Positions 36,264 to 55,361 of a stretch of DNA of 64,000 nucleotides are shown piece by piece; positions within the stretch are counted from its first letter, which is position 1; each line of letters begins with the position of its first letter. The notes under the pieces were generated by a model. That model was given only the letters and a program-made list of their open reading frames with translations. It ran no database searches and was not told the origin of the DNA. The stretch lies in the IMG/VR virus record IMGVR_UViG_3300010163_003659, positions 1 through 64,000 of that record; one strand, given 5' to 3'. Source of the DNA: a virus (taxonomy: Duplodnaviria; Caudoviricetes). The translations under genes and the position numbers were made by a program.

Positions 36264-36854
36264 ATGGATAGCCAGACAACAGACAATAAGACTTTAGTGG
36301 TTCTGACACATGAACAGCTAAAGGATATTTATGAGAATGCGGCTGCTATTGGAGCGAAAGAGGCTCTGAAAATGTTCGAGCAGGAACGGAAGAAAGAGCA
36401 GGGGAAAAGAGCGGATCGGCGGCTGAGGAATACCAAGCTGCTGCTTCGTAATTATCATATGCTGAAGGAACACGCAGAAAATTCAGTTTTTGGAAGAACT
36501 CAGATGGAGGAATCCGCAATAGATATTCTGGAATCAATGATGTCAATGTACGACAATGAGGTAATTATCGAAAGCATAAAGCGGAGCGCCACCAGAACTG
36601 CAGTTATTGTTTCCCATATAGAAACAATGTTTGGGCTGTATGAGGCGTATTGTGGCAAGGCTCCAAACCGGGAAATTGAAATGAGGCGGTACGAGGTTGT
36701 ATGGGATATGTATATGGCGGATAATACCTTATCGGCAAAGGAGATTGCAGATAAGCAGAACATATCTACTAGAAATGTATATGAGGACATCAAAGTTGCG
36801 ACAGAAAGATTATCAGCCCTTATTTTTGGGGTGGATGGATTGAAAGTTCATTAA
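36264..36854 (+). CDS. Late-gene transcription regulator (ArpU/RinA position; C-terminal sigma-region-4-like HTH)
   Basis: TKLLLRNY; LSAKEIADKQNISTRNVYEDI; last gene before the late region. Confidence 0.7.
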   Translation: MDSQTTDNKTLVVLTHEQLKDIYENAAAIGAKEALKMFEQERKKEQGKRADRRLRNTKLLLRNYHMLKEHAENSVFGRTQMEESAIDILESMMSMYDNEVIIESIKRSATRTAVIVSHIETMFGLYEAYCGKAPNREIEMRRYEVVWDMYMADNTLSAKEIADKQNISTRNVYEDIKVATERLSALIFGVDGLKVH

Positions 36855-36939
36855 ATCCGCCATCTGCAAAAATTCTTCCTTGATTTTTCAATATAAAAGT
36901 GAGAAAATTGTACTCGTAAAATTCTGAATCGAACATCGG

Positions 36940-36971
36940 AGGAAGTCTGAGGCTATCGGACTTCCTTTTTT
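36940..36971 (+). terminator. Intrinsic terminator in the late-operon leader
   Basis: AGGAAGTCTGA-GGCTA-TCGGACTTCCT followed by a T run. Confidence 0.65.
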
Positions 36972-41720: not shown

Positions 41721-42551
41721 ATGCCGAGGGCGCCGAGCGAAAAAATGATTGAAGCTGAAAAGCTGTTTAATGATGGAATGGCAATGGTGGAAATCGCAAA
41801 GAAACTGGGAGTTTCTGATGGTACTGTCCGTAGCTGGAAGAACAGATACGGATGGGCTGACAAGTCAAAAAAAAACAAACGCAACGTTGCAAAAAAAGAC
41901 GGTAAGAAAACTGCAACGTTGCAAAAGAAAAAGAAGGGCGGGCAGCTGGGAAATCAAAATTCTAAGGGAGCATCTAAAGGCAAGGGTAACCCAAAGCCAG
42001 TACCGCCACCCGATAGAACAAAACATGGTGGATATGTTCCTGTGTTCATGGATGCCCTCGATGAAGATGAGCAGGAACTCGTTGCAACGATTCCAGAAGA
42101 TACAGAACGGCAGCTCATGGAGCAAATACAGCTTTTTTCCATTCGGGAGCGCAGAATATTAAAAGCAATCAATAAATACCGGGAGCAAAAGGGAGACGTT
42201 GCGGTTGCTGATGTTACCAGATTTGAGGATAAGAGAATCTTCAAGGATAAGGAGGAAGAGGCAGAATACAATAGGCGCCAGAAGAAAAAAGTTGATAATG
42301 AAGAGATTCTTCCGGGTAAGTCCTACAGCATACAGACGCATACATCAAATAAGGATATGATAATAGCGAGGCTGGAACAGGAGCTTTCGACTGTTCAAAG
42401 CAAAAAGACAAAGGCTATTGAAGCATTGTCGAAATATCGCTTAGAAAAAGCAAAGTTGGAAAGTGAAAGTGCTGGAAATGATGCTGTTGACGATTGGATT
42501 GCAGCGGTTCTTGAGGAAGATGAGGGAGAGGATGTGAGTGGTGATGAATAA
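41721..42551 (+). CDS. terS: Terminase small subunit
   Basis: N-terminal HTH (EIAKKLGVSDGTVRSWKNRYGW), KGGQLGNQN, KHGGY; directly upstream of terL. Confidence 0.85.
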   Translation: MPRAPSEKMIEAEKLFNDGMAMVEIAKKLGVSDGTVRSWKNRYGWADKSKKNKRNVAKKDGKKTATLQKKKKGGQLGNQNSKGASKGKGNPKPVPPPDRTKHGGYVPVFMDALDEDEQELVATIPEDTERQLMEQIQLFSIRERRILKAINKYREQKGDVAVADVTRFEDKRIFKDKEEEAEYNRRQKKKVDNEEILPGKSYSIQTHTSNKDMIIARLEQELSTVQSKKTKAIEALSKYRLEKAKLESESAGNDAVDDWIAAVLEEDEGEDVSGDE

Positions 42552-42920
42552 GAACTCACGAGCGTTAAGGAAACGGTTCTTCCAGAAGAGAATTCCGGTA
42601 TATAGGAAAAATCCTGTCATATTCGCAAGGGAGGTATTGTTATTTGAGCCGGATGAATGGCAAATGGCGGCATTGATGGACTTGGCAGAGAATCCGAAAG
42701 TTGCGATTAAATCTGGGCAAGGTGTTGGAAAAACAGGTTTAGAAGCTGTGGCACTGCTGTGGTTTTTATGCTGCCACCCATATCCGAGGATTGTAGCGAC
42801 TGCACCAACCAAACAGCAGCTACACGATGTGTTGTGGTCCGAAGTCAGCAAATGGATGAGCAAGTCTCCTTTGCTCTCAGAAATCCTCAAGTGGACTAAG
42901 ACATATATCTACATGGTTGG
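42538..42920 (+). CDS. terL: Terminase large subunit, 5' part (interrupted)
   Basis: PDEWQ, Walker A SGQGVGKT, ATAPTKQQL; terL similarity stops at the att repeat. Confidence 0.9.
42900..42920 (+). repeat. attL of inserted element
   Basis: GACATATATCTACATGGTTGG; 19/21 identical to 63340-63360. Confidence 0.9.
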
Positions 42921-43000: not shown

Positions 43001-43059
43001 TGGTGTCAATTAGTTTGTAATATGGTGTCAGAATTGGTGTACAGAAAAAAGTGGTGTCA
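43001..43059 (+). promoter_or_regulatory. Integrase arm-type sites (left)
   Basis: TGGTGTCA at 43001, 43023, 43052 and TGGTGTA at 43035; same motif at 63253 and 63265. Confidence 0.7.
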
Positions 43060-43280
43060 TATTGAAAAAAAGTGCTTGACAAGGGTTTTGATGAAATTTG
43101 TTACTCTGTACTTTTATTTCCATTCATTTTGAAATATGGGGTGTTTTATCTATCACCTGCTATTATGTGTTCTTAAGAGGCTGAAAGAGCGCGATTTGCT
43201 ATAATATTTATATCACTTTACATGGCTTGCCACAGTAAAAGGAAAATTAAAAAGACAAAAAAGAATAGGAGGTTTTTAAA

Positions 43281-43490
43281 ATGGTTGCAAGGGAAAAGGC
43301 TGATACAATGGTAACTTTGTCGGACAAGCGGCTGCTGAGTATAGACGAGTTTGGTATTTATGCCAGCATCGGAATATGTAAGGCAAGAGAAATAGCGGAG
43401 GAAACAGGCTCTTTGCTCAAGGTGGGGAAAAGAGTGCTTGTTGACCGGGTAAAGTTTGACCGGTGGTGTGATGAACACAGTGGAGTATGA
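43281..43490 (+). CDS. Excisionase-like small HTH protein
   Basis: RLLSIDEF..YASIG..KAREIA..G...VGKRVLVDRVKFDRW. Confidence 0.7.
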   Translation: MVAREKADTMVTLSDKRLLSIDEFGIYASIGICKAREIAEETGSLLKVGKRVLVDRVKFDRWCDEHSGV

Positions 43491-43520
43491 TACTTGGAGG
43501 AAAGGGGTAAATAAATCAGC

Positions 43521-43934
43521 ATGGGAAGGAAGAAAAAATATTCTCCTAAACCATTTGAAAGTGCTGGTGGAGCAAACGATACTAGCGCCAACATATATGA
43601 AAGTATGTTGACTTCTGCTGCCTTTCAGGATTTAACCAAGAATCAGAGGCTATTGTACATATACATGAAAGCCCAGTTTTACGGTAAAAGGAAGCCAGAG
43701 AAAGATTTTCCGGATGTGGAACAGCTGCAAGGAGATGAATTGTTTTATTTTAATCTTTCTTTGGCTGAAAAATATGGACTTTATACCCGGGCGAACCATA
43801 TGCAGTTTTATAATGACATTAAGATAATAGAACAGCATGGATTTATAAAGACTGTGAGCAATGGGCGTTCTACAAAATCTCGGACAATTTTTAAATTTGT
43901 AGGTGATTGGAAGCTTTGGAATGATACAAGTTAA
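43521..43934 (+). CDS. Winged-helix protein (replication-initiator-like)
   Basis: SAAFQDL...LYIYMK...IEQHGFIK; immediately followed by palindromic iterons. Confidence 0.55.
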   Translation: MGRKKKYSPKPFESAGGANDTSANIYESMLTSAAFQDLTKNQRLLYIYMKAQFYGKRKPEKDFPDVEQLQGDELFYFNLSLAEKYGLYTRANHMQFYNDIKIIEQHGFIKTVSNGRSTKSRTIFKFVGDWKLWNDTS

Positions 43935-43937
43935 AAT

Positions 43938-44079
43938 CCTAGGTGGATTTTTCCACCTAGGCAGGAGGTAAACTAGGTGGATTTTTCCACCTACCCAGAA
44001 GAAAATGGGAAAAAGGTAGGTGGAAATTTCCACCCAGTGTCTGAATATTTTGATACTTACCTAGGTGGAAATTTCCACC
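43938..44079. repeat. Four palindromic iterons TAGGTGGA(T/A)(T/A)TTTCCACC
   Basis: 43938-43961 (perfect 10-bp arms), 43973, 44017, 44060; AT-rich tract follows. Confidence 0.85.
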
Positions 44080-44200
44080 ACTTTATATAAAGTTTACCAT
44101 ATACTTATAAATTTATTGGAAATTAGAAATGGCTGATATGGGCATGCGGATATTGCTTTCAAACAGGAATAGGGATTTGTTATAGAAAGGAAATGAAATT

Positions 44201-44305
44201 GGATATCTGTCCGTTGTTTGCTGTGACATTTGTACGACGTTTGTTATGACATTTGTCCGGACATTTGTACATCATTTGTTGTGACATTTGTCCAGACAAA
44301 TGTCC
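44201..44305. repeat. ~12-bp GACATTTGTCC array matching helper origin iterons
   Basis: Units at 44201, 44224, 44236, 44247, 44259, 44282, 44294; 44252-44268 is the exact reverse complement of 21020-21036. Confidence 0.85.
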
Positions 44306-44819
44306 TGTCTGCCATTATTGCTGATATGGGAATGTGTGTGGTTTTTCTTCTGATTCCTGATAATAGGATATCTGTAAAGCCTTTATTTTCAAGGTTCAGG
44401 GCATGGTATACCACTGGTAGTTATTTGGTTGCCACAGGTTAGGATAGAGTTAGGTTTGCACAGACCTCTAAATACATGGTGCAAAAAATGACTATTCCAT
44501 TGTGCAAAAATGTCCAATGGAAAGTACCAGAGAAACCAATGGATTGTGTAATAATGTCCAACCAATACCAAATAATAAACCATAGCGAACAGATGTCCGA
44601 TGTATAACTGAATACGGGCATAGGATAGCTCTAAGCCTGAGTAATGTAGCAGCAGGAAAATACTACAGACATGGGTATGCAGACAATAATACCGCTACAG
44701 ATAATGGGCTATTTGCCCAAAGCATAATAAAAGCCTGACTGCTGGGACAGAAAGGCTTTTAAAAGGCAAGTGTGGCATTTGCCATATTGGTAAATCTATT
44801 ATAAGGGAGATGCCGTCAT

Positions 44820-45674
44820 ATGTCGAATGAAAAGATTGTTGAGCAGATACAGCAGGGCATTAATGTGACAGCCAATCAGGAAAAGCTCTGGGAGCAAAAT
44901 AAGGGTTTTGTGGTACAGTGTATCAGAAAGTATGTAGGCGGGTGTGATGGGCAGGATTTTAAGGATTTCCTACAGGAAGGTTTTATAGGCTTGATAGATG
45001 CAGCCCGCCTATTTGATGCCGGGCATGGGGTGAAATTTTTGACTTATGCAGAGTACAGTATACGGAGAGCCGTATACCGTTATAATGGCATGAATACCTA
45101 TATGGTGTGTGTCCCGGAGTATCTTAAGGCGAGAATGAGGAAGTTGGCCGCATTCAGGCAGAAATATCGGGAAGAACACCACAGGAACCCGGAACCGGAA
45201 GAAATACTGAACGCTTTACACATTTCTTACCGTTCCCTCTGCCATCTGGAGAAAACCATAATGAACATAAGCACCAGGAGTCTTGATGAGTACATATCGG
45301 AGGATGGGAATACCAAACTGGCCGACCTGCTCTCAACAGATGAAAAGATTGACGAGCTGGCCGGAGGAAGTGAGTACCAAAGGGAGCTGCATGAGGAACT
45401 GGAAGCGGCACTTTCCATTTTGGATAATAAAACTGCCATGATGATACGGTGTGCATATTACCAGGGGAACAATTACACCAAGACCGCTGAAATATTTGGG
45501 TGCAGCAGGCAGGCGGTTGATGAACGCATAAAGAAAGGCTTTTATAAGATACTCCATTCAAGGCATAGGAAAAGGCTGGAAAGCTTCATGTGGGAGGGAT
45601 ACCATGTAGATTCCCGGCGCCTGAAGGACTATGTGGAGGAAATTGACAATATAAGCAGTGATTTTTTGTTATAA
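44820..45674 (+). CDS. Sigma-70 family RNA polymerase sigma factor
   Basis: DFLQEGFIGLIDAARLFD...KFLTYAEYSIR (region 2), SLDE (region 3), TAEIFGCSRQAV (region 4). Confidence 0.85.
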   Translation: MSNEKIVEQIQQGINVTANQEKLWEQNKGFVVQCIRKYVGGCDGQDFKDFLQEGFIGLIDAARLFDAGHGVKFLTYAEYSIRRAVYRYNGMNTYMVCVPEYLKARMRKLAAFRQKYREEHHRNPEPEEILNALHISYRSLCHLEKTIMNISTRSLDEYISEDGNTKLADLLSTDEKIDELAGGSEYQRELHEELEAALSILDNKTAMMIRCAYYQGNNYTKTAEIFGCSRQAVDERIKKGFYKILHSRHRKRLESFMWEGYHVDSRRLKDYVEEIDNISSDFLL

Positions 45675-45679
45675 GGCAG

Positions 45680-46501
45680 GTGGATGGGCATATGCCATAT
45701 TTTTATGATTATTTTGCTAAGGAATACAGGGACAGGCATAAGGAGGGGCTGTTTCCTGCCCCTGCTGCCATGTTCCGGGATATTAGGCAGGATGTGCAGG
45801 GATGCAGGCGGGTCTTAAAAAGTGCTTTTACCGGCTATCGTGAGGGCAGGAATACAGAAGTATTGAAAATGTTGTTTATGGAATACCGGGAATATATTGC
45901 AGGGCTGAATGATATGCAGGCAAAAGACAGATGTAATGCTTTTGCTTACCAGTATATGGTAGAGACATATGCTGGCAGCAGGGCGATAGCCACAAAGCTG
46001 GGGGTTGTGAAGGATACTGTATGGAATTACATCAACAGATGCATTGATGAAATGCTGATACTCTGCATGGGAATACCGGCAGCAGTTGAAGGTCCTGAAG
46101 GCAAAGAAAAGATTGTCCGGATGCTGGCAGGGGGTTGCAGGCTTCTACGGAATATGGCAGGGGAATATGTCCTGCTGCTCTTCCCGGGCAGGAGGCAGAA
46201 CCGGGCAGTAGAATGGGGCAGAGAGATAACAGGAGATGTTCTGCAGCAATTTGCGGGGGCTGTGGAGGCATACCTAGACTATTGCAGGGATGGACACACC
46301 CGCATTGATACTGACATCCGGAAGGCGTGGGTTCTGGAAAGGTGCATTGACGGAATTAGCCCTGCTGCCATTGCTGAAGAATATGGATGTTGTGAAAGCA
46401 CAATCTATGCAGATATTCGGGAGAATGATAGACGGCTTGCGGCCATGCTGTTTGATATGGAAAGAGATACTGCAAGCAACGGAAAAGTAAGGATAAATTG
46501 A
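45680..46501 (+). CDS. Tandem two-domain homologue of helper late regulator
   Basis: Two HTH-ending modules, each resembling the C-terminal half of 36264-36854. Confidence 0.55.
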   Translation: MDGHMPYFYDYFAKEYRDRHKEGLFPAPAAMFRDIRQDVQGCRRVLKSAFTGYREGRNTEVLKMLFMEYREYIAGLNDMQAKDRCNAFAYQYMVETYAGSRAIATKLGVVKDTVWNYINRCIDEMLILCMGIPAAVEGPEGKEKIVRMLAGGCRLLRNMAGEYVLLLFPGRRQNRAVEWGREITGDVLQQFAGAVEAYLDYCRDGHTRIDTDIRKAWVLERCIDGISPAAIAEEYGCCESTIYADIRENDRRLAAMLFDMERDTASNGKVRIN

Positions 46502-46707
46502 TGCCAGAGAAGAATAGGGGAATAGATTTTTACTCAAAAATGAGTAAAGCAGACAGCAGTGGGAAAACGTCAACGGATTATGACATTTCTTTGGACATGT
46601 CAAAGCAGATTTGTATGATACAGAGGATGTCGGAGGGGAAACAGTGTCGGCAGTACCTTATCGACTTGGAGAAGGCATGAAATACACTGGAGCAGGTTAT
46701 GGCAAGG
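46498..46707 (+). pseudogene. AntA/AntB antirepressor fragment
   Basis: DYDISLDMSKQICMIQR..GKQCRQYLIDLEKA*NTLEQVMAR: TGA where the family normally has W; N-terminus missing. Confidence 0.65.
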
Positions 46708-46724
46708 GAAGGGGAATCTAAAGT

Positions 46725-47480
46725 ATGGAACAGTTGATCATGATTGAAAACGAGATGGTACCAGTATATACTACCAGCACAGGTGAGAAGGTAGTATATG
46801 GAACAGAGCTTCATCGAGTTTTAGAGGTAAAAAGCAATTATCGGGAATGGGCAAGCAGACGTTTTTTGGATATTGGAGCGGTGCAGCAGGAAGACTTCGA
46901 AAGCGTCGAAATTCCGACACTGGCAGGCGGCACTCCGAGGAAAGAGCATATTATCCGGTTGGATACCGCCAAAGAAATGGCTATGCTGGAGAGGAATGAG
47001 AAAGGAAAGCAGATCAGACGGTATTTTATTCAAGTTGAAAAGAAATATAGGGGCAGCAGTTCTGGGATGATTCCGAAAGGCAGGCAGCTGATGGCATTGG
47101 CGGTGATGGAGGCACAGAAGATTATTGCGGAACAGGAGCAGGTCATCTGTAGAATGAAGCCTAAGGAAGTTTTTGCTGATGCGGTGTCTGCATCCGACAG
47201 CTCCATCCTAATTGGGGAACTCGCCAAGATACTCCGGCAGAATGGGATTGCCACCGGGGAAAAGAGGTTATTTAGCTGGATGCGGCAGCAGGGCTATTTG
47301 ATACGCAGGAAAGGCATAGATTATAATATGCCGACGCAACGGAGCATGGAGATGGAACTCTTTGAGATAAGGGAGCGGACTATCAACAATCCGGGCGGGA
47401 GTATCCGGATAACAAAGACTGTGCTTGTGACAGGCAAAGGGCAGCAGTATTTCATTAATAAATTTTTGGATGAGGATTAG
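46725..47480 (+). CDS. Antirepressor, AntA N-terminal plus KilAC/ANT C-terminal
   Basis: ELHRVLEVKSNY..W, LDTAKEMAML, RRYFI; ILIGELAKIL..NG, NMPTQRSME, VTGKGQQYF. Confidence 0.9.
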   Translation: MEQLIMIENEMVPVYTTSTGEKVVYGTELHRVLEVKSNYREWASRRFLDIGAVQQEDFESVEIPTLAGGTPRKEHIIRLDTAKEMAMLERNEKGKQIRRYFIQVEKKYRGSSSGMIPKGRQLMALAVMEAQKIIAEQEQVICRMKPKEVFADAVSASDSSILIGELAKILRQNGIATGEKRLFSWMRQQGYLIRRKGIDYNMPTQRSMEMELFEIRERTINNPGGSIRITKTVLVTGKGQQYFINKFLDED

Positions 47481-47584
47481 TATACAGTTATTTCTTATAT
47501 GCAGCAAATAAAGTTCTCAATATGGTTGACAAAAAAGCTGACAAATTGTAAAATTAGCTCATATCTAAAAATGATTGGAGGAAA

Positions 47585-48220
47585 ATGATGGGAGCATTTG
47601 GTAAAGATTTGTTAACCCAACACGAGATGATAACCTTGGCATCAATTGTACAGGTTGGAGATGCTACTTACTTTGATTTGCTAGAGGCAGAAAGACCGAT
47701 GTTTGCGCATCCGTATTTCACTGATTTGAAGGGAAGAGTACGGACGAAACTTGTACAGATGCAGTGTGAGATGGAGCACTATGACGGCAAGTTCCCATTT
47801 GCGTTTTCTGAACGGGAATTTTGCTATGGGCATAAAGTGCCAGAATTAAGGAATAAGTATATGATAATCCATTTTGCACAAAGTAATTCGCCGACTTCCC
47901 TTCCAAGCAAGGCTGATTACAAATGTGAATTGACATTTAACAATGATTCGTTGTACCGTCAAATGAGATTTGACTTTTTAGGAGAACAAAAATATGTTAA
48001 AGAGCCATATTATGGCATTTTGGTTTTCGGAGGCCGGCAGGGAAAGACATTTTGCCGTTTACAGTTTCCGGAGCCGGGATACAGGGCTATTGCAGATTAC
48101 ATTGATATACCTATGATGAGTTTGGTGCCTGAAAAGGAGGAAACAAAGAAATTTGAAAGGAAAAAGGCGATACTGAGGGAGGAATTTCTAGCTCATAATG
48201 TCAGGGAAGAAGTATTATGA
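47585..48220 (+). CDS. Hypothetical protein; putative toxin of RosmerTA-like pair
   Basis: Translationally coupled (ATGA) to XRE-ImmA gene; own promoter TTGACA 47526. Confidence 0.45.
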   Translation: MMGAFGKDLLTQHEMITLASIVQVGDATYFDLLEAERPMFAHPYFTDLKGRVRTKLVQMQCEMEHYDGKFPFAFSEREFCYGHKVPELRNKYMIIHFAQSNSPTSLPSKADYKCELTFNNDSLYRQMRFDFLGEQKYVKEPYYGILVFGGRQGKTFCRLQFPEPGYRAIADYIDIPMMSLVPEKEETKKFERKKAILREEFLAHNVREEVL

Positions 48221-49374
48221 AAAATAGTGTCATTCCAAGCCGCATAACAGAGGCACGTGAGGCTTGTGCATTGTCAATGGGGGATTTGGCAGAAAGAATA
48301 GGGGTTACGAGGCAGTCTGTTTCAAAATATGAAAGAGGAATTATGAGCCCTTCACTTGATGTCTTACAGTCAATTTCAGTTTTATTGCATTTCCCGGTTG
48401 ATTTTTTTTATAAAGAAGAGCTGGGAATAAGCACAGGAACAAGCCCGTTATTTTTTCGTTCTAAATCCAATATTTCCAAAAAAGTAAAGATGGCATGTAA
48501 GCACCAGGTAAAATGGGTTTGTGAGATAAGAAAACAGTTGGAAAGATATGTTAAATTTGTTGACCAGAACACTCTTGTAGTTGATGTGGATTATGAGAAT
48601 CTGCAGGATAGTGACATTGAAGAAATAGCTCTGTCGGTAAGACATGAGTGGGAACTTGGTGATGCTCCTATAGATGATTTGATAGGTATTTTAGAGAATC
48701 AGGGGATAATTGTAGCCCAATTTTCGGGAAATGATTTCTGCTCCTTTAATGGAATTGATGCGTATTCCTCATGGTATGGCGGAATACCTTATATAATTTA
48801 CAATTCAATGCAGAAAAGTGCTGTCCGTACAAGGTTTAGTATTCTTCATGAGTTGGGGCATTTAATTTTTCACAGTTCTGTTTCAGAAGAAGATGCAGTA
48901 AAAAAAGAAGTTGTTGATTTTGCAGATATGCAGGCAGACAGATTTGCAGCAGCTTTTCTTTTGCCGTCCACCTCTTTCCCGAAAGATGTAAGGGGAACCT
49001 CTTTGGCTTATTTAGAGATAATCAAAAAGAAATGGGGAGCTGCAATGTCTACCATAATCAGGCGTTGCGAGACATTAGACCTTTTGACGGATAATCAAAT
49101 CGGGTATTTGAAAAGGCAAATGACAACAAACAAGTATTGGCATAAGGAGCCCCTGGATGATGTGCTGCAGATTGAGCCGCCGGAGATGTTACGTGATGCG
49201 GTTTATCTGTTGATAGATAACAATATAATCACAAAACATACTTTTTTGGACTTATGTGCTTTGCCACCAAAGGATTTACAGTGCATATGCTCATTGCCGG
49301 ATGGCTTTTTTGGCAGTCCCCTGCAGAAGCAAAAACCTGTTTTAAGAGTGGTGAGGGAGGGGGAAGATTTTTGA
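48217..49374 (+). CDS. XRE HTH - ImmA/IrrE (M78) metallopeptidase fusion
   Basis: LAERIGVTRQSVSKYERG; RFSILHELGH; QADRFAAAFLLP. Confidence 0.9.
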   Translation: MKNSVIPSRITEAREACALSMGDLAERIGVTRQSVSKYERGIMSPSLDVLQSISVLLHFPVDFFYKEELGISTGTSPLFFRSKSNISKKVKMACKHQVKWVCEIRKQLERYVKFVDQNTLVVDVDYENLQDSDIEEIALSVRHEWELGDAPIDDLIGILENQGIIVAQFSGNDFCSFNGIDAYSSWYGGIPYIIYNSMQKSAVRTRFSILHELGHLIFHSSVSEEDAVKKEVVDFADMQADRFAAAFLLPSTSFPKDVRGTSLAYLEIIKKKWGAAMSTIIRRCETLDLLTDNQIGYLKRQMTTNKYWHKEPLDDVLQIEPPEMLRDAVYLLIDNNIITKHTFLDLCALPPKDLQCICSLPDGFFGSPLQKQKPVLRVVREGEDF

Positions 49375-49473
49375 GATGTAATTTGTTTGGAAGTTGCAAT
49401 AAAGGCAAACGGCATAGAAATTAAAGTTATAGGGAATAATATATTGATTAATAGAGGCAGCACTTTCAATGTG

Positions 49474-49504
49474 AAGCCGGGCACTGCAAGTGTCTGGCTT
49501 TTTT
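49474..49504 (+). terminator. Intrinsic terminator
   Basis: AAGCCGGGCAC-TGCAA-GTGTCTGGCTT followed by T run. Confidence 0.7.
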
Positions 49505-49568
49505 GCGTACAGGGGGGGTGTCTGCAAGGGAAAGCCTACAGGGCAGACAGCGTTTTTTGTGTGTGAGG

Positions 49569-49853
49569 AAAGCGAACGTTCGCTTAATTACAAAACAATG
49601 GCACATGGCGGTAAGGATACTGTAAACCTGCTGTTTATGGTATCCCGCCCATATTGCTGTGCCTTTTTAAAAAGCGAACGTTCGGTTTGCCCCATACAGA
49701 AAAACGGGCGGGGATTTACCGCAGCGTTGCATTTTCCGCAGAAGGAAAACGAATCACAGGTGGAGCGGTTTGCCAGTGCAAGAAGGTGGCGCAGGTGGAA
49801 CGGCCGAAAGCTCCCCACGGAAGCAAAAACAAATGATTGCAACGTTGCAAAAG
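49569..49853. repeat. Palindrome cluster incl. 16-bp match to helper terS
   Basis: AAAGCGAACGTTCG at 49569 and 49671; GCAGCGTTGCA 49721; TGCAACGTTGCAAAAG 49838-49853 = 41912-41927. Confidence 0.75.
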
Positions 49854-50466
49854 CCTGAGGGGAGTCTGTGGCACACGCAGAGGCTTCATTTTGCCGCTCT
49901 AATGGCCGGAATGATAAGAATTGCCCTTCAGCATTGCAAAGGGGCTGTATGGGCAAAATAGGCGGTGCGTGGGGTGGGGCTGCTGCCGTGCAATATTGTG
50001 GCAGGGGATAGGAGGGGCAACAGGAAGAATTTCATGGGGACAGGATGCACAGCGTCAAGGTGTGGGCGGGATAGGATACCATCTGCCCCATCATAGGCGA
50101 GGGGAGTGTATTGAAAGGGTTTGGGATAGCCTGGGGATGCCAGCGCTGCAGTGAAGGGATCCTGCTGCCGTCAGAGACATAACCAGAGACAGAGACATAG
50201 GCATAACCGTATGGCCTTCAGATTGCCCGAAATTCGGTTGAAATTATTTTAGACAATAATTTTATCGTTGAGAGAATAAAATGAGCATGGCGGCCAAAAT
50301 AGAAGGCGAACAGAACTATATCAAACTTGAAGCAGTTAGGACAACAGGTTCTGCTTATAGGAACATAGGAATTTTTTAGTTGCGTATGGGACTAACTAAT
50401 ACTATAATAGTGGTAGATAACAAATGACAAGGGAGGACAAAAGATGGAAATACGGAGGTGGAATTT

Positions 50467-51120
50467 ATGGGACAAAGAGTTAAAAACGAACTAAATAATG
50501 TCTCGATTGGAGGCAGCTATATTGGCAGGAGTAGTATAGTTAATAATTATTATATTCATCAGGCAGAAACAGGAACAGAAGGGAGCAGGGATGACAAAAC
50601 AATATTCATTTCCTATAACTGGCATGATGGGAAGATTGCAGACAGGATTGACAGGCATCTGTCAGGGCTTCCAAGTGTAACTGTAAAAAGGGATGTGCGT
50701 GACATTGGCCCATGGAAAAGCATCCGAGAGTTTATGGAAGGCATCCGGCAGCAGGATTATGCGGTTTTCATTGTCAGCGATTCTTATCTGAAATCAAAAA
50801 ATTGTATGTTTGAGGTTACAGAAATGATGAAAGAACAGGAGTATGCGGACAGAATTTTCCCGGCCGTTGTGGAAACCGACATATATGATCCGTTGGTACG
50901 TGCCAGATACATAAGTTACTGGCAGCAGGAATGTGATAAGCTGGAGGCTGCTGTAAAGGGGCTGGATCCGGCCAATGCAGTTGAGCTGGCAGCAGATTTG
51001 AAATGTTATAAAAATATTGCATCTTCTGTAGGGGAGTTTTTAAGCATAGTTGCAGACAGGAACAATCCGGATATCCATGAGGTAGAGGTACAGATAGAGA
51101 AAGCATTACTGAAGAACTGA
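50467..51120 (+). CDS. TIR-domain protein with N-terminal amyloid-like motif
   Basis: IFISYNWHD, RDVRDI, VSDSYLKSKNCMFEV (catalytic Glu); N/G/S/Y-rich first 30 aa. Confidence 0.9.
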   Translation: MGQRVKNELNNVSIGGSYIGRSSIVNNYYIHQAETGTEGSRDDKTIFISYNWHDGKIADRIDRHLSGLPSVTVKRDVRDIGPWKSIREFMEGIRQQDYAVFIVSDSYLKSKNCMFEVTEMMKEQEYADRIFPAVVETDIYDPLVRARYISYWQQECDKLEAAVKGLDPANAVELAADLKCYKNIASSVGEFLSIVADRNNPDIHEVEVQIEKALLKN

Positions 51121-51139
51121 CTGATAAGGGGGAATTACT

Positions 51140-53521
51140 ATGGATCAGAGAATAAATAATCACTTTAAGGGTGGTAACATAGAAGGCGATTATGTAGGGG
51201 GGAATCAGACAAAAAACTACTATATATCCATGTTTCAAGATTTAGAGCGAGAGTTTGTTGTTACACATAATGCCGATATCAAGCCAGTGTCCTATTTTAC
51301 TGGACGAGAAACAGAGCTGCAGGAGTTGCGCCAGCGGCTAGAGGAAGGGCGCAAGTCTGTTCTAGTAAGCGGGATGGGTGGCATTGGAAAAACACATATC
51401 TGCCGGAAGCTGTTTGAGGAATACACCAAAAAACATGCTGATGGTGAGGATATACCTTTCTGCCATATTGGATATGTTGAGTATAATGGGGATATGGGCA
51501 GCAGTCTGCAAACCTGTTTAAAATTTAAGGAGCAGGACGATTCGGGGCAGAATCAAGAAGCGGCATGGAGAGAACTGGAATATCTAGCGGCAGGTGGGAA
51601 ACTTCTGCTGTTTGTGGATAATGTAGACAAGCCTGTAAACGCTGATCCAGGATTGCAGAGGCTAAAGGGGATTCCCGGAGCGGTTATTTTGACATCTCGG
51701 CAGGCTTCTTTTAGTGATGAATTTGAACCATACCCGATAGGTTTCCTTGATATGGAGCAGTGTAAAGAGATTTATGAGAAAATCCGGTTTAAGGGCAGTA
51801 AGAGAAAAGTCAGACTGGAGGAAGAACAGGATTTGAAATATGTCATAGAGGATTTGGCTGGGAGGCATACCATTACAGTTGAACTTCTGGCGCATTTGGC
51901 ACGTACAAAAACATGGACAGTGAAAAGGCTTAGAGAAGAGTTGGGGCAAAAAGGGTTCTGTCTGGCATTTCATAAGAACGGGAAACTTGTCAATATCCAA
52001 AAATCTTATGAAGTGCTTTATGATTTGTCCAAACTGACAGAAGCAGAGCAAAACATTCTGGAGGCTTTTTCAATATTTCCGTATATTTCTTTGGAGGCAG
52101 AGATATGTAATCAATGGCTGCTTGCGGATGCTGGAGTAAGTGAAGAAGATGATATCTTAATGGGATTATATCAGAAAGGTTGGCTGCAGTTTGATATAGA
52201 GCAGGGAAGCTATGCTATGCATCCTGTGTTTGCGAAATTTATTTATGAAAGATGTAAGCCAAAATTGGAAGGGCATCGTGGATTGATAGAGGGATGTCAG
52301 AAGTGTTTGGAAATACCAGAAAGCGGTTCTGTTATGGAGTGCCAGCATTTTATTCCTTTTGCAGAGAATATTTTGAAAAAAATCAGCATGGAAAATGAAA
52401 TAGAACATGTTCAGTTTATGGACATATTGGCATATTCACTACAACATACAAGGGAGTATGCAAAAGCAGAAGTATTATACGAAAAGATTTTACAGATTAG
52501 AAAGAAATTGTATGGACAAAAACATCCAGATACAGCTACCGGTTATAATAATTTAGCAGCTGCATATGCTGAACAGGAAAAGGATAAAGAAGCGAAAAAA
52601 TTGTATAAAAAAGCTTTGTTGATAAGAGAGAAAGTGTTAGGGGAGGAGCATCCAGATACAGCTGACAGTTATAATAATTTGGCAGGGGTTTATTCCAAGC
52701 AGGGGAAGTGCTGGAAAGCAGAGGGACTACATAAAAGAGCCTTGTTGATAAGAGAGAAAGTGTTAGGGGAGGAGCATCCAGATACAGCTGACAGTTATAA
52801 TAATTTGGCAGTGATATATGCTGAACAAGAAAAGTACAGGAAAGCAGAAAGGTTCTGTAAAAGAGCCTTGTTGATAAGAGAGAAAGTGTTAGGGGGGGAG
52901 CATCTAGAGACAGCTAATAGTTATAATAATTTGGCAAGGATATATGCTGGTCAAGAGAAATATAAGGAAGCAGAAGAACTGCATAAAAAAGCCTTGTCGG
53001 TAAGAGAGAGGGTGTTGGGAGAGGATTATCCAGATATAGCTTATAGTTATGATAGTCTTGCAGAGATAAATGAGATTCGAGAGAAGTATAAAGAAGCAGA
53101 AGAATTATATAGAAAAAGCCTACAAATAAGAATGAAAGTGCTAGGGGAAGAATATCCAGATACAGTCATGAGTTATCTCAACTTGGCAAGTGTGTTGAGT
53201 GAACAAGGAAAGTATGGGAAAGCAGAAGAGTTGTATAAAAAGGGTATACAGATAGGTGAAAGCGTTATGGGAAAAGAACATTCATATACAGCTATAGGTT
53301 ATAATAATTTGGCAGGAGTATATATAGAACAAGGAAAGATTGACAGGGCAATAATATATTATCATAAGGCTTATCAAGTTTTTGTGAACAAATTTGGAAG
53401 AGATGATCCAGATACACAAGTTGTATATGGAAATTTGGAAGCGATATACAGAGCATATAATCCAGAAGGCAATTTTGAACAGTGGCTGGAAGAAAAGATG
53501 AAAGAAGCAGATTTGGATTAA
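51140..53521 (+). CDS. NLR-like STAND NTPase (NB-ARC) with ~8 TPR repeats
   Basis: GMGGIGKT, LLLFVDNV, ILTSR, MHP; 42-aa repeats LGEEHPDTADSYNNLA. Confidence 0.9.
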   Translation: MDQRINNHFKGGNIEGDYVGGNQTKNYYISMFQDLEREFVVTHNADIKPVSYFTGRETELQELRQRLEEGRKSVLVSGMGGIGKTHICRKLFEEYTKKHADGEDIPFCHIGYVEYNGDMGSSLQTCLKFKEQDDSGQNQEAAWRELEYLAAGGKLLLFVDNVDKPVNADPGLQRLKGIPGAVILTSRQASFSDEFEPYPIGFLDMEQCKEIYEKIRFKGSKRKVRLEEEQDLKYVIEDLAGRHTITVELLAHLARTKTWTVKRLREELGQKGFCLAFHKNGKLVNIQKSYEVLYDLSKLTEAEQNILEAFSIFPYISLEAEICNQWLLADAGVSEEDDILMGLYQKGWLQFDIEQGSYAMHPVFAKFIYERCKPKLEGHRGLIEGCQKCLEIPESGSVMECQHFIPFAENILKKISMENEIEHVQFMDILAYSLQHTREYAKAEVLYEKILQIRKKLYGQKHPDTATGYNNLAAAYAEQEKDKEAKKLYKKALLIREKVLGEEHPDTADSYNNLAGVYSKQGKCWKAEGLHKRALLIREKVLGEEHPDTADSYNNLAVIYAEQEKYRKAERFCKRALLIREKVLGGEHLETANSYNNLARIYAGQEKYKEAEELHKKALSVRERVLGEDYPDIAYSYDSLAEINEIREKYKEAEELYRKSLQIRMKVLGEEYPDTVMSYLNLASVLSEQGKYGKAEELYKKGIQIGESVMGKEHSYTAIGYNNLAGVYIEQGKIDRAIIYYHKAYQVFVNKFGRDDPDTQVVYGNLEAIYRAYNPEGNFEQWLEEKMKEADLD
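52616..52811 (+). repeat. 126-bp-period TPR coding repeats
   Basis: 52616-52685 identical to 52742-52811 (70 bp). Confidence 0.85.
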
Positions 53522-53725
53522 GTCATAGGCACGATATTGGCTAATGGTAATGGATGCACTGATTCTGCTGCCGTACAGCAGTAGATATTGTTATGTTGAA
53601 ATAGTGGAATTTATGCAGGACCTTAGTGATGAGGAACTGGAGACATTGAACAGGCAAGTAAATCAGGCGATGGAGCATGTTCGCATCGTTTACAAATGAA
53701 ACAAAATGTGGAAGGGGAATGTACC

Positions 53726-54322
53726 ATGAAGAGAGAAACAACTCCGATCAGAGTGACGGATAAGATTATGGAATTATGCAGCGGGATAGTACCGGATGCG
53801 AAACCGGAATATGTTTCGGTTAAAGTGCAGGAATGGAGCAGACCAATGGAATGTTTTCCCAATGTGGAGCGTATGGTTCAAGAGCAGGGCGGGCAGCAGA
53901 TTAATGGTTGGGCAATCTGGCAATGGGCGAATATCCTTGTAGAGGCCGAGGCTCATTCTGTGTGGCAAAGTCCGAAAGGGGAACTGATGGATATTACCCC
54001 TCATGACAATGGGGAAAGGGAAATCCTATTCCTGCATGATGCTGGCATGGTGTATTCCGGGCAGAGCATTGGAAATGTAAGGCTTGCCATCACCGGATCA
54101 CCGCTGGCTGCTGAAATGGTCGATCTCGGCGATAAGATAGATGCGGTCATGTGCAGTTACAAGCCAGGAACGGAAATTCCACTTTGGGAGCTACGGCGCC
54201 GACTGCTGCCACTAAAGGAGCAGAGGGAGGCAATCGTGGGGATGTTGAACCAGAAAGCCAGCAGGAATGCCCCTTGCCCATGCCAGTCTGGATTAAAGTA
54301 CAAGAAATGCTGTGGGAGGTAA
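53726..54322 (+). CDS. SEC-C motif protein
   Basis: C-terminal SRNAPCPCQSGLKYKKCCG; ECFPNV...GWAIW...EAHSVW...DITP. Confidence 0.75.
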   Translation: MKRETTPIRVTDKIMELCSGIVPDAKPEYVSVKVQEWSRPMECFPNVERMVQEQGGQQINGWAIWQWANILVEAEAHSVWQSPKGELMDITPHDNGEREILFLHDAGMVYSGQSIGNVRLAITGSPLAAEMVDLGDKIDAVMCSYKPGTEIPLWELRRRLLPLKEQREAIVGMLNQKASRNAPCPCQSGLKYKKCCGR

Positions 54323-54325
54323 GTT

Positions 54326-54907
54326 ATGATATTTGATGTTATTTTCAGCATCCTTTCAACAGTTATTAGTTCAACTTCTCTTATATTTATTAAAGAGGTT
54401 TTTGACAGAAAGCAGAACCATCAGGAAAATAAAGAAATCCAAGAAGATGCTGAGAAGATTATTGGAGATACATTTAAAAGTGATGATGTAATTGACTTGA
54501 TGCTAAAAAATGTTCGTGAATTGAGAGAGTATTACATAATCAGCAAAAGACAGGCAACAAATGCGTTTTCTGCTTCACTGATAGTCTGCTTTTTGGGTTT
54601 TATTGTTTATATTGCGGGTATCGCTGTATTTGTTATTTCTGGAGAAAATGCATTACTGTTAACTACCATATCAGGAACAATAGTGGAAGTAATTTCCGGA
54701 TTATTTTTCTGGCTTTATAGACATGCAATTAAGCAGTTAAATATTTATCATCAGAGATTAGGTACAACAGAGAAGTATCTGACAGCAATTCGTTTAGTGG
54801 ATAAAATGGGACAGGATAAGCATGATGATATGTACAAGCATATTATTGAATGTGTTTTAATAGATAATCGTATGCAATCAAATGAGGAAAATGAAAAAGA
54901 GCAGTAA
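54326..54907 (+). CDS. TRADD-N-associated 2TM-like membrane protein
   Basis: EYY..SKRQA..AF..S....LGF...TM-TM..FFWLY.....L..YHQRL pattern. Confidence 0.55.
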   Translation: MIFDVIFSILSTVISSTSLIFIKEVFDRKQNHQENKEIQEDAEKIIGDTFKSDDVIDLMLKNVRELREYYIISKRQATNAFSASLIVCFLGFIVYIAGIAVFVISGENALLLTTISGTIVEVISGLFFWLYRHAIKQLNIYHQRLGTTEKYLTAIRLVDKMGQDKHDDMYKHIIECVLIDNRMQSNEENEKEQ

Positions 54908-55118
54908 GAAGGAATATGTTCTCTAATCTGCAGAGTGTTTCAAATCCGTCCGAAAAGGCTTTTGGCGATTAATTTAACTGTTGAGAGGGGAAAAGAGGAA
55001 TATGGAGCAAATTAGAGGGTATAGGGAGCGTGTTGTACATTAGACAGCAGGCTCTTTCTTTATGAGATTTAAAGTTGCGTAAGCATTAAACCAATATTAT
55101 AATAAAGACAGATAAAGG

Positions 55119-55361
55119 ATGATAGGGGGAATGGTGGAAATGATGGAAGTGTTTAATGTTATTAGTGGAGTATGTTCCATTGTTGGACTGTCTGTTTCTC
55201 TTTTTACGGCCAGCAAGGTGATTAAAATAACGCAGAACATTAACAGTGGCAATGTAGATGACCATTCAAAGGTTGTTAATGGAGGCAAAGGCAATACATA
55301 TAATGGGCCATATGCAGGGAGGGATTATACGAATGAGACGAGAAGTGGACAACAGAAATAA
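55119..55361 (+). CDS. Small single-TM protein with C-terminal amyloid-like motif
   Basis: Hydrophobic VFNVISGVCSIVGLSVSLFTA, then N/G-rich tail with GNTYNGPYAGRDY; start may be 55131-55143. Confidence 0.75.
   Translation: MIGGMVEMMEVFNVISGVCSIVGLSVSLFTASKVIKITQNINSGNVDDHSKVVNGGKGNTYNGPYAGRDYTNETRSGQQK

Follow-up and report, generated by a model that had tools for sequence, protein, structure and literature searches.

A satellite-like element, a parasitic piece of DNA lodged within a gut-bacterial prophage, encodes a protein that is built of two fused modules of the type found in the regulator of that helper prophage, a structural and evolutionary statement that can be made safely. The two halves of this tandem protein are homologous to each other and to the helper regulator, each is predicted to end in a sigma-region-4-like fold, and the gene is strictly linked to, and has diverged together with, a sigma factor gene of the same satellite, which is itself embedded in the terL gene of the helper. 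The best explanation for the sigma factor and the tandem protein is that they form the regulatory cassette of a helper-embedded satellite lineage of Lachnospiraceae and related Clostridia. All coordinates refer to the whole 64,000-nt stretch of DNA analysed (the window), which belongs to a virus record of 95.9 kb carrying helper and satellite as a composite.

The tandem regulator gene (45692-46501, + strand) encodes a protein of 269 aa (30.9 kDa, pI 6.75) in which an N module (residues ~1-136; 45692-46099, + strand) is followed by a C module (residues ~137-258; 46100-46465, + strand), each half amounting to 15-16 kDa. The open reading frame proposed originally, 45680-46501, is indeed present on the + strand and opens at a GTG (45680), but our family alignment (A1, 33 homologues) favours the ATG at 45692 (MPYFYDYF...) as the probable start; the peptides that had been quoted from the tandem and helper genes were found in their translations. 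The likeness between the tandem protein and the helper protein (36264-36854), as well as that between the N and C halves, lies below pairwise detection, since BLASTP returned no match in either comparison and it is the profiles that reveal it. The phrog_1558 model covers the helper protein over its full length in the PHROG profile search (E 1.9e-53) and also matches residues 64-133 of the tandem protein (E 2.1e-9), there over profile positions 104-172 of 178 only; the single-module architecture of that family (~180-200 aa with a long N-terminal helix) is not that of the tandem protein. With alignment A3, made up of 36 sequences of the tandem family (identities of 20-79%, distant representatives having been added from a phmmer search), hhalign matched the C half to helper residues 57-192 (Prob 98.7, E 4.1e-16, 116 columns), the N half to helper residues 84-193 (Prob 96.9, E 2e-10, 95 columns) and the N half to the C half (Prob 97.3, E 2e-11, 73 columns), the respective E values from a narrower first family alignment being 1e-8, 1e-4 and 2e-4. 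Controls were far weaker, whether the halves were compared with region 4 from the adjacent sigma family (E 0.053 and 7.6e-4, Prob <=25) or with the reversed helper alignment (E 0.15-0.28). In distant homologues from two other genomes the phrog_1558 model matches each half separately, and the C half of these proteins is reached by tblastn with the helper protein as query (34% over 85 aa, E 3e-7). Profile comparison thus confirms each ~130-aa half as homologous to helper residues ~57-193 and, as judged from these alignments, the tandem protein is an internal duplication of the module that forms most of the helper protein. The original prediction of a covalent tandem of two helper-regulator-type modules is thereby borne out, the likeness of each half to the helper protein going well beyond that of generic HTH domains. 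The shared HTH from which it had started is real, but the region in common is much longer than the motif that was quoted, and the description of the first half as the weaker copy needs correction, for a single-sequence HMM gives this half, and not the second, the better phrog_1558 score. Helper residues 1-56 have no counterpart in the tandem protein by either hhalign or the AF2 models.

The tandem family falls into some 140 clusters when grouped at 90% identity and into 39 at 50% identity, full-length representatives having two modules in all 39, and its range so far is confined to rodent-gut and related Clostridia. A phmmer search of 1.84 billion representatives retrieved two-module relatives and fragments only, with no single-module bridge to phrog_1558, and tblastn of the tandem protein against phage and plasmid collections gave no match. 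Pfam assigned generic HTH families only to the 36 family members, with Sigma70_r4_2 in 7 and Sigma70_r2 in none of them, and beyond such generic models the family is without a Pfam family of its own.

The AF2 model of the tandem protein, built on A3, is compact and all helical (pLDDT 91.6, pTM 0.86). In VIA-align its residues ~180-257 resemble region 4 of many sigma factors, the best row superposing residues 189-253 of the predicted model on region 4 of SigF (8jzt_A; Z 7.9, rmsd 1.2 A over 56 residues). Modelling was less successful for the helper protein (pLDDT 66.9), though its C-terminal third came out well; residues 113-190 match region 4 of SigW (5wuq_A; Z 9.1, rmsd 2.5 A over 64 residues), and the long N-terminal helix (residues 16-62) has no counterpart in the tandem protein. 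VIA-align rates these Z values as middling, the rows being uniformly sigma region 4. On these predicted models, each module begins with a helical part and ends in a sigma-region-4-like HTH fold. Foldseek with the whole tandem model found no match in PDB or BFVD at E <= 0.001; as modelled, the two-module arrangement as a whole is without a listed counterpart in PDB/BFVD and the C-terminal domain alone matches sigma region 4. The tandem protein is not a sigma-70 factor in the sense of region 2 plus region 4, its N half being homologous to the C half and not to region 2. The recognition helices of the helper protein, the N half and the C half have in common the frame (S/T)..(T/N)V(Y/W).(D/Y)I, while most exposed positions differ; an RL further along is common to the helper and the C half, and the recognition helix closest to that of the helper is found in the C half of a second type of cassette (type B, see below). 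Both HTH motifs, including the recognition helix, are strongly conserved across the tandem family.

The helper protein (36264-36854, + strand; 196 aa, pI 6.0) is a single-module phrog_1558 member in which a long N-terminal helix precedes a sigma-region-4-like C-terminal domain, and its gene lies where the early genes end, immediately upstream of the packaging genes and of terS, in the slot of the late transcriptional regulators (Ltr). Homologues occupy the position between replication genes and terS in three cultured phages, namely Enterococcus phage EFC-1, Listeria phage LWP01 and Faecalibacterium phage FP_Brigit. The Ltr superfamily of Gram-positive phages, which includes RinA, ArpU, LtrA/Sigma70_r4, LtrB/DUF1492 and LtrC, is defined by this gene position together with a sigma-region-4-like C-terminal domain (Quiles-Puchalt 2013, PMC3753634). 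Therefore, the best reading of the helper protein is that of a presumed late regulator. As in that superfamily, the C-terminal domains of both the helper and the tandem protein are structurally like sigma region 4 in the predicted models, and each tandem half, at ~15 kDa, has the size of one Ltr. In contrast to Ltr proteins, which are small (~130 aa, ~15 kDa) and basic, neither the tandem nor the helper protein is small or basic; the tandem protein is doubled and in the window its gene does not lie upstream of terS; the helper late leader carries a terminator; and no Pfam or NCBIfam model of an Ltr family is matched by the helper protein or the tandem protein, the DUF1492 and ArpU clusters among the ESM Atlas look-alikes serving as leads only. 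Since neither protein is basic, unlike the described RinA-type Ltr proteins, a role in binding RNA polymerase or a sigma factor is as possible as DNA binding. The zinc-binding Cys motif of the Ogr/Delta proteins is absent, with no match to such a family in Pfam, PHROG or NCBIfam. The resemblance to Ogr/Delta is architectural and convergent because the fold is all helical and sigma-region-4-like where Ogr/Delta are zinc fingers, just as anticipated when a convergent solution in an unrelated protein family was proposed.

The satellite interrupts the helper terL, which follows terS (41721-42551) and is split into 42538-~42925 (phrog_5902 positions 15-130) and a part from 63353 onward, whose frame matches phrog_5902 positions 128-326. 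The insert of ~20.4 kb is bounded by a 17-nt direct repeat, ACATAT[A/C]TCTACATGGT, whose left copy ACATATATCTACATGGT (42901-42917, + strand) is the attachment core in terL at the satellite start and whose right copy ACATATCTCTACATGGT (63341-63357, + strand) is the core at which terL resumes. These observations support a satellite-like integrative element embedded in the helper's terL. Its genes run from an Xis-like gene and orf137 through a non-coding stretch to the sigma gene, the tandem gene and an antirepressor gene; then come a fused HTH-M78 regulator, a TIR plus STAND-TPR cargo, Uma2 and a DnaD-like replication gene and, at the right end, a second Xis-like gene and a tyrosine integrase. 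Profile searches of the satellite in the window revealed no capsid, portal or terminase genes. The antirepressor gene ant (46725-47480, + strand) encodes AntA and KilAC domains (Pfam ANT 8e-33, AntA 4.6e-16) and in most loci follows the tandem gene at a variable distance. Satellite genes from 43281 to 57720 are all co-oriented with the helper late operon. A comparable organisation has been reported for the helper-embedded PICIs of Gram-negative bacteria (Tommasini, Mageeney and Williams 2023, PMC10111431), which likewise lie in a helper late gene (including terminase), co-oriented with the late operon, so that helper late transcription can run into the satellite, and in which the interrupted gene is similarly restored only on excision. 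The elements described here differ in residing in Lachnospiraceae and in carrying a sigma factor and a doubled regulator, sigma factors being unmentioned in PMC10111431.

Some additional signals were noted within the element. Repeats of the TGGTGTCA type cluster just inside both of its ends (43001-43070 and 63250-63275) and are candidate arm-type sites for the Tn916-like integrase with its Integrase_DNA N-terminal domain. A perfect extended -10, TGCTATAAT, at 43197-43205 lies ~75 nt upstream of the Xis-like gene (43281-43490), so that the left end of the satellite probably carries its own housekeeping-sigma promoter. Just after orf137 (43521-43934) four palindromes GGTGGA(A/T)(A/T)TTTCCACC are spaced by 34-45 nt at 43942-44079; they were rejected as an operator shared with the helper, occurring nowhere else in the window, helper included, nor in 18 loci compared, and from their sequence they look like a private operator or partition-type array. 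Further on, contigs of three rat-gut runs carry 18 different letters where the window has a 102-nt stretch with GACATTTGT repeats (44180-44283), with flanks 93-99% alike, so this repeat region varies between strains. The label 'METAGENOMIC RNA-Seq' of three runs was rejected as evidence of transcription, for coding and non-coding sequence are covered alike and the reads are probably DNA. Rfam gave no match over the whole window, the consensus promoter and terminator scan of the window was uninformative, and no promoter or operator was identified for the sigma/tandem pair.

The partner of the tandem gene, at 44820-45674 (+ strand), encodes a sigma-70-family factor of 284 aa with regions 2, 3 and 4 (Pfam Sigma70_r2 2.5e-11, r4 1e-4, r3 0.005; phrog_351 1.5e-43; NCBIfam TIGR02937 80 bits, above cut-off), its stop lying 17 nt before the tandem-gene ATG. 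In every locus whose sequence extends that far, a sigma gene stands directly upstream of the tandem homologue, and in the distant type stop and start overlap. Pairwise identities of tandem and sigma proteins are strongly correlated over 120 locus pairs (Spearman 0.86, Pearson 0.95), a figure that is descriptive because locus pairs are not independent and that is driven largely by two or three cassette types; for the tandem protein versus ant, xisL and orf137 the locus pairs gave 0.08, -0.19 and 0.41. Identities to the window are 63-79% for sigma and 57-66% for the tandem protein in the first cassette type, 45-46% and 29-31% in the second, and 40% and 26% in a distant satellite (L024), with xisL, orf137 and ant at 50-81% across these loci. 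The type of cassette is not matched to the helper regulator: an 81%-identical regulator accompanies the 30% type in ASF492 and the 57% type in L012. Immediately upstream of the sigma gene a hairpin with a U-run (44730-44760, + strand; fold -16.6 kcal/mol, z -3.8) is conserved in all aligned loci, its stem letters changing yet still pairing, and it can be regarded as a candidate terminator or attenuator insulating the cassette. The hairpin loop keeps CTGCTG..ACAG, followed in many loci by TGGCA and AATCCATTRTAAGGGAG; a sigma-54-type reading of this TGGCA was rejected, the -12 GC not being kept across loci. Sigma-type proteins that work only with a second, co-encoded small protein are found in phage SPO1 (gp33/gp34), T4 (gp55/gp33) and B. 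subtilis (SigO-RsoA) (in part, PMC3152322). Unlike in those systems, the satellite sigma factor has its own regions 2, 3 and 4 and its partner, as predicted from sequence, has two sigma-region-4-like units and is a relative of a phage regulator.

The comparison was extended to 25 related loci from Acetatifactor, Roseburia, Hungatella, Eubacterium (including E. plexicaudatum ASF492) and other Lachnospiraceae, plus IMG/VR contigs. These have in common a block of Xis-like gene, (orf137), sigma, tandem gene, (ant), variable cargo, Xis and integrase. Ten loci besides the window, with left flanks of sufficient length, have the element after the 5' part of terL, the right junction being seen in L020; the helper regulators of these prophages are 74-89% identical to that of the window. 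In three loci (L005, L012 and L038) the satellite lies ~1.3-2 kb downstream of the helper regulator, and in L005 (6588-7950) it is preceded by a truncated Na+/solute symporter gene, terS being absent together with the 5' part of terL, an arrangement that reflects either a recurrent deletion or a second insertion site. One contig (L001/L002) holds two satellite copies in tandem with a 13.2-kb period and equal match identities, and L014 has two different satellites side by side, the integrase of one adjoining the Xis-like gene of the next. The pair is also present in another embedded satellite, L024 (726-16774 of a Bacillota MAG), which adjoins a tape-measure gene and runs from a replication initiator and a helicase loader through sigma, the tandem gene, two uncharacterised genes, a head-morphogenesis gene and terS to Xis and integrase. 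This satellite, with genes of its own for replication initiation, helicase loading, head morphogenesis and the small terminase, looks like a classical PICI. There the tandem homologue precedes the head-morphogenesis gene and terS, so that the pair stands in the Ltr position relative to late genes that belong to the satellite itself, whereas in the window the tandem gene is followed by ant and cargo and not by terS. The only phrog_1558 match in the L024 genome is the tandem protein itself, and the helper-regulator query gave no match there, which, because the genome is a MAG, means that a helper regulator was not found and not that its absence is proven.

The DNA downstream of the helper regulator gene bears on how this protein may act. 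Six further helper prophages have conserved the leader of 161 nt that follows the gene, and in the window the late leader proper (36880-36971, + strand) combines a promoter-like site, TTGATT-17 nt-GAAAAT (36880-36908, + strand), a second -10-like element, TAAAAT, 8 nt after the first (36917-36922, + strand), and a terminator with a 13-bp hairpin and U6 (36941-36971, + strand; fold -19.8 kcal/mol, z -2.95). We take this layout to be that of a Q-type anti-termination unit, as at lambdoid PR'. The TAAAAT sits about where a sigma-dependent pause element would be and the terminator precedes the first late gene; in Enterococcus phage EFC-1 a hairpin with a T-run is also present after the homologous gene. 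The terminator suggests anti-termination rather than simple activation, and the leader sequence hints at a Q-like mechanism. Weak hints in the same direction come from the helper protein versus phrog_79 (Q-like; E 0.0055) and versus 6jnx_P (Z 6.8, rmsd 6.9 A in VIA-align), from PF06530 (phage antiterminator Q) in 1 of 36 target relatives (0.0033) and from a Q-like ESM Atlas likeness (cosine 0.90). The late-leader pattern occurs once in the window, with no copy in the satellite, and 12-15-mers taken from the leader turn up in the satellite no more often than do those of shuffled leaders.

Since the tandem protein is always found with the element's own sigma factor, it most likely runs the satellite transcription programme. 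We put at about even the chances that it is a doubled Ltr-type regulator belonging to the satellite, a pseudo-dimeric transcription factor that acts on satellite promoters in concert with the satellite sigma. Placed behind a conserved candidate terminator and co-oriented with the interrupted late operon, the cassette would therefore be made when helper late transcription enters the satellite. According to this model, late transcripts of the helper would cross the conserved hairpin and express sigma and the tandem protein, a timing suggested by the gene layout; the satellite sigma would then redirect RNA polymerase and the tandem protein, its presumed partner at promoters, would bind an asymmetric site through its two non-identical recognition helices, if it does bind DNA, and activate the downstream genes of the satellite itself, with ant and the cargo as putative targets in the window and the head-morphogenesis gene and terS in the distant relative.

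The original prediction offered two other outcomes, activation or jamming of helper late transcription, by analogy with satellite P4, whose Delta protein is roughly a head-to-tail double of the Ogr unit of its helper P2. Both here and in P4 the satellite encodes a relative of the helper's late-gene regulator as well as an antirepressor; what differs is that Ogr-type proteins are small and zinc-binding where the module described here is helical and sigma-region-4-like, and that the tandem protein is locked to a satellite sigma factor, none being known in P4. Delta is described as a mimic of P2 Ogr (PMC8096241). It is possible, though in our opinion unlikely, that the tandem protein acts in Delta fashion, taking the place of a helper-regulator dimer on the helper late leader and activating or anti-terminating late transcription, and there is a similarly small probability that the satellite, with its antirepressor, could then itself drive virion production. 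Homology of each half to the helper regulator over ~95-116 columns speaks for such a role, as do the C-half recognition helix, which keeps the helper pattern VY.DI(K/R)....RL..(L/M) and comes closest to it in the distant type-B homologues, the constant residence of satellites of the window lineage in prophages with a 74-89% identical regulator, and the antirepressor gene that follows, recalling the P4 epsilon and delta pair (in part, PMC8096241). However, cassette type and helper regulator show no co-variation, the pair is present in the L024 genome whose only phrog_1558 match is the tandem protein, the exposed positions of the recognition helices differ among the helper, the N half and the C half, and the satellite is without any promoter resembling the helper late leader, while P4 has helper-type late promoters; moreover, a strictly linked sigma factor would be left unexplained.

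That the tandem protein jams helper late transcription, by occupying the regulator's site on DNA or RNA polymerase with no activation or by titrating the helper regulator, much as SaPI PtiA acts on LtrC, would agree with its homology to this regulator and with the restraint that satellites commonly impose on helper late genes (PMC8096241). We nonetheless regard it as quite improbable, for a satellite without capsid or terminase genes presumably needs the helper late genes for any transfer, there is again no co-variation with the helper regulator, and the modules pair with one another inside the modelled chain (pTM 0.86), which suggests that the dimer surface is already taken. In a further, rather unlikely reading the tandem protein would be an anti-sigma, chaperone or adaptor that holds or releases the satellite sigma, with no promoter-specific DNA role; tight linkage and co-divergence, the near-neutral pI and the service of sigma-region-4-like domains as protein-protein interfaces in several systems (PMC3152322) are all compatible with this, but the strong conservation of both HTH motifs, recognition helix included, across the family and the lack of likeness to known anti-sigma domains in the fold searches argue against it. 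These readings are not strictly exclusive, in that a cassette driving the satellite programme and also reading the helper leader would satisfy both the favoured and the Delta-like explanation.

Satellites that copy or block helper late regulators are exemplified by P4 Delta, by SaPI PtiA, which acts on LtrC, and by PLE CapR; to our knowledge there is no described case of this in Gram-positive gut anaerobes, and a satellite that carries a sigma factor is, so far as we are aware, likewise undescribed, none having been found in literature searches. It is tempting to speculate, as a minor possibility, on a two-part takeover kit for helper late genes in which the satellite's own sigma factor and a covalent double of the late regulator/antiterminator act together with an antirepressor. 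If true, the satellite would turn on the virion genes of its helper independently of the helper regulator, as a Gram-positive, sigma-based counterpart of P4 epsilon/delta transactivation operating from inside the helper terminase gene. The sigma/tandem cassette shows, in a form that lends itself to clean tests, how a parasite of a phage may duplicate and fuse a regulator module and couple it to a sigma factor, and it offers a handle on the mechanism of the sigma-region-4-like late regulators of Firmicute phages.
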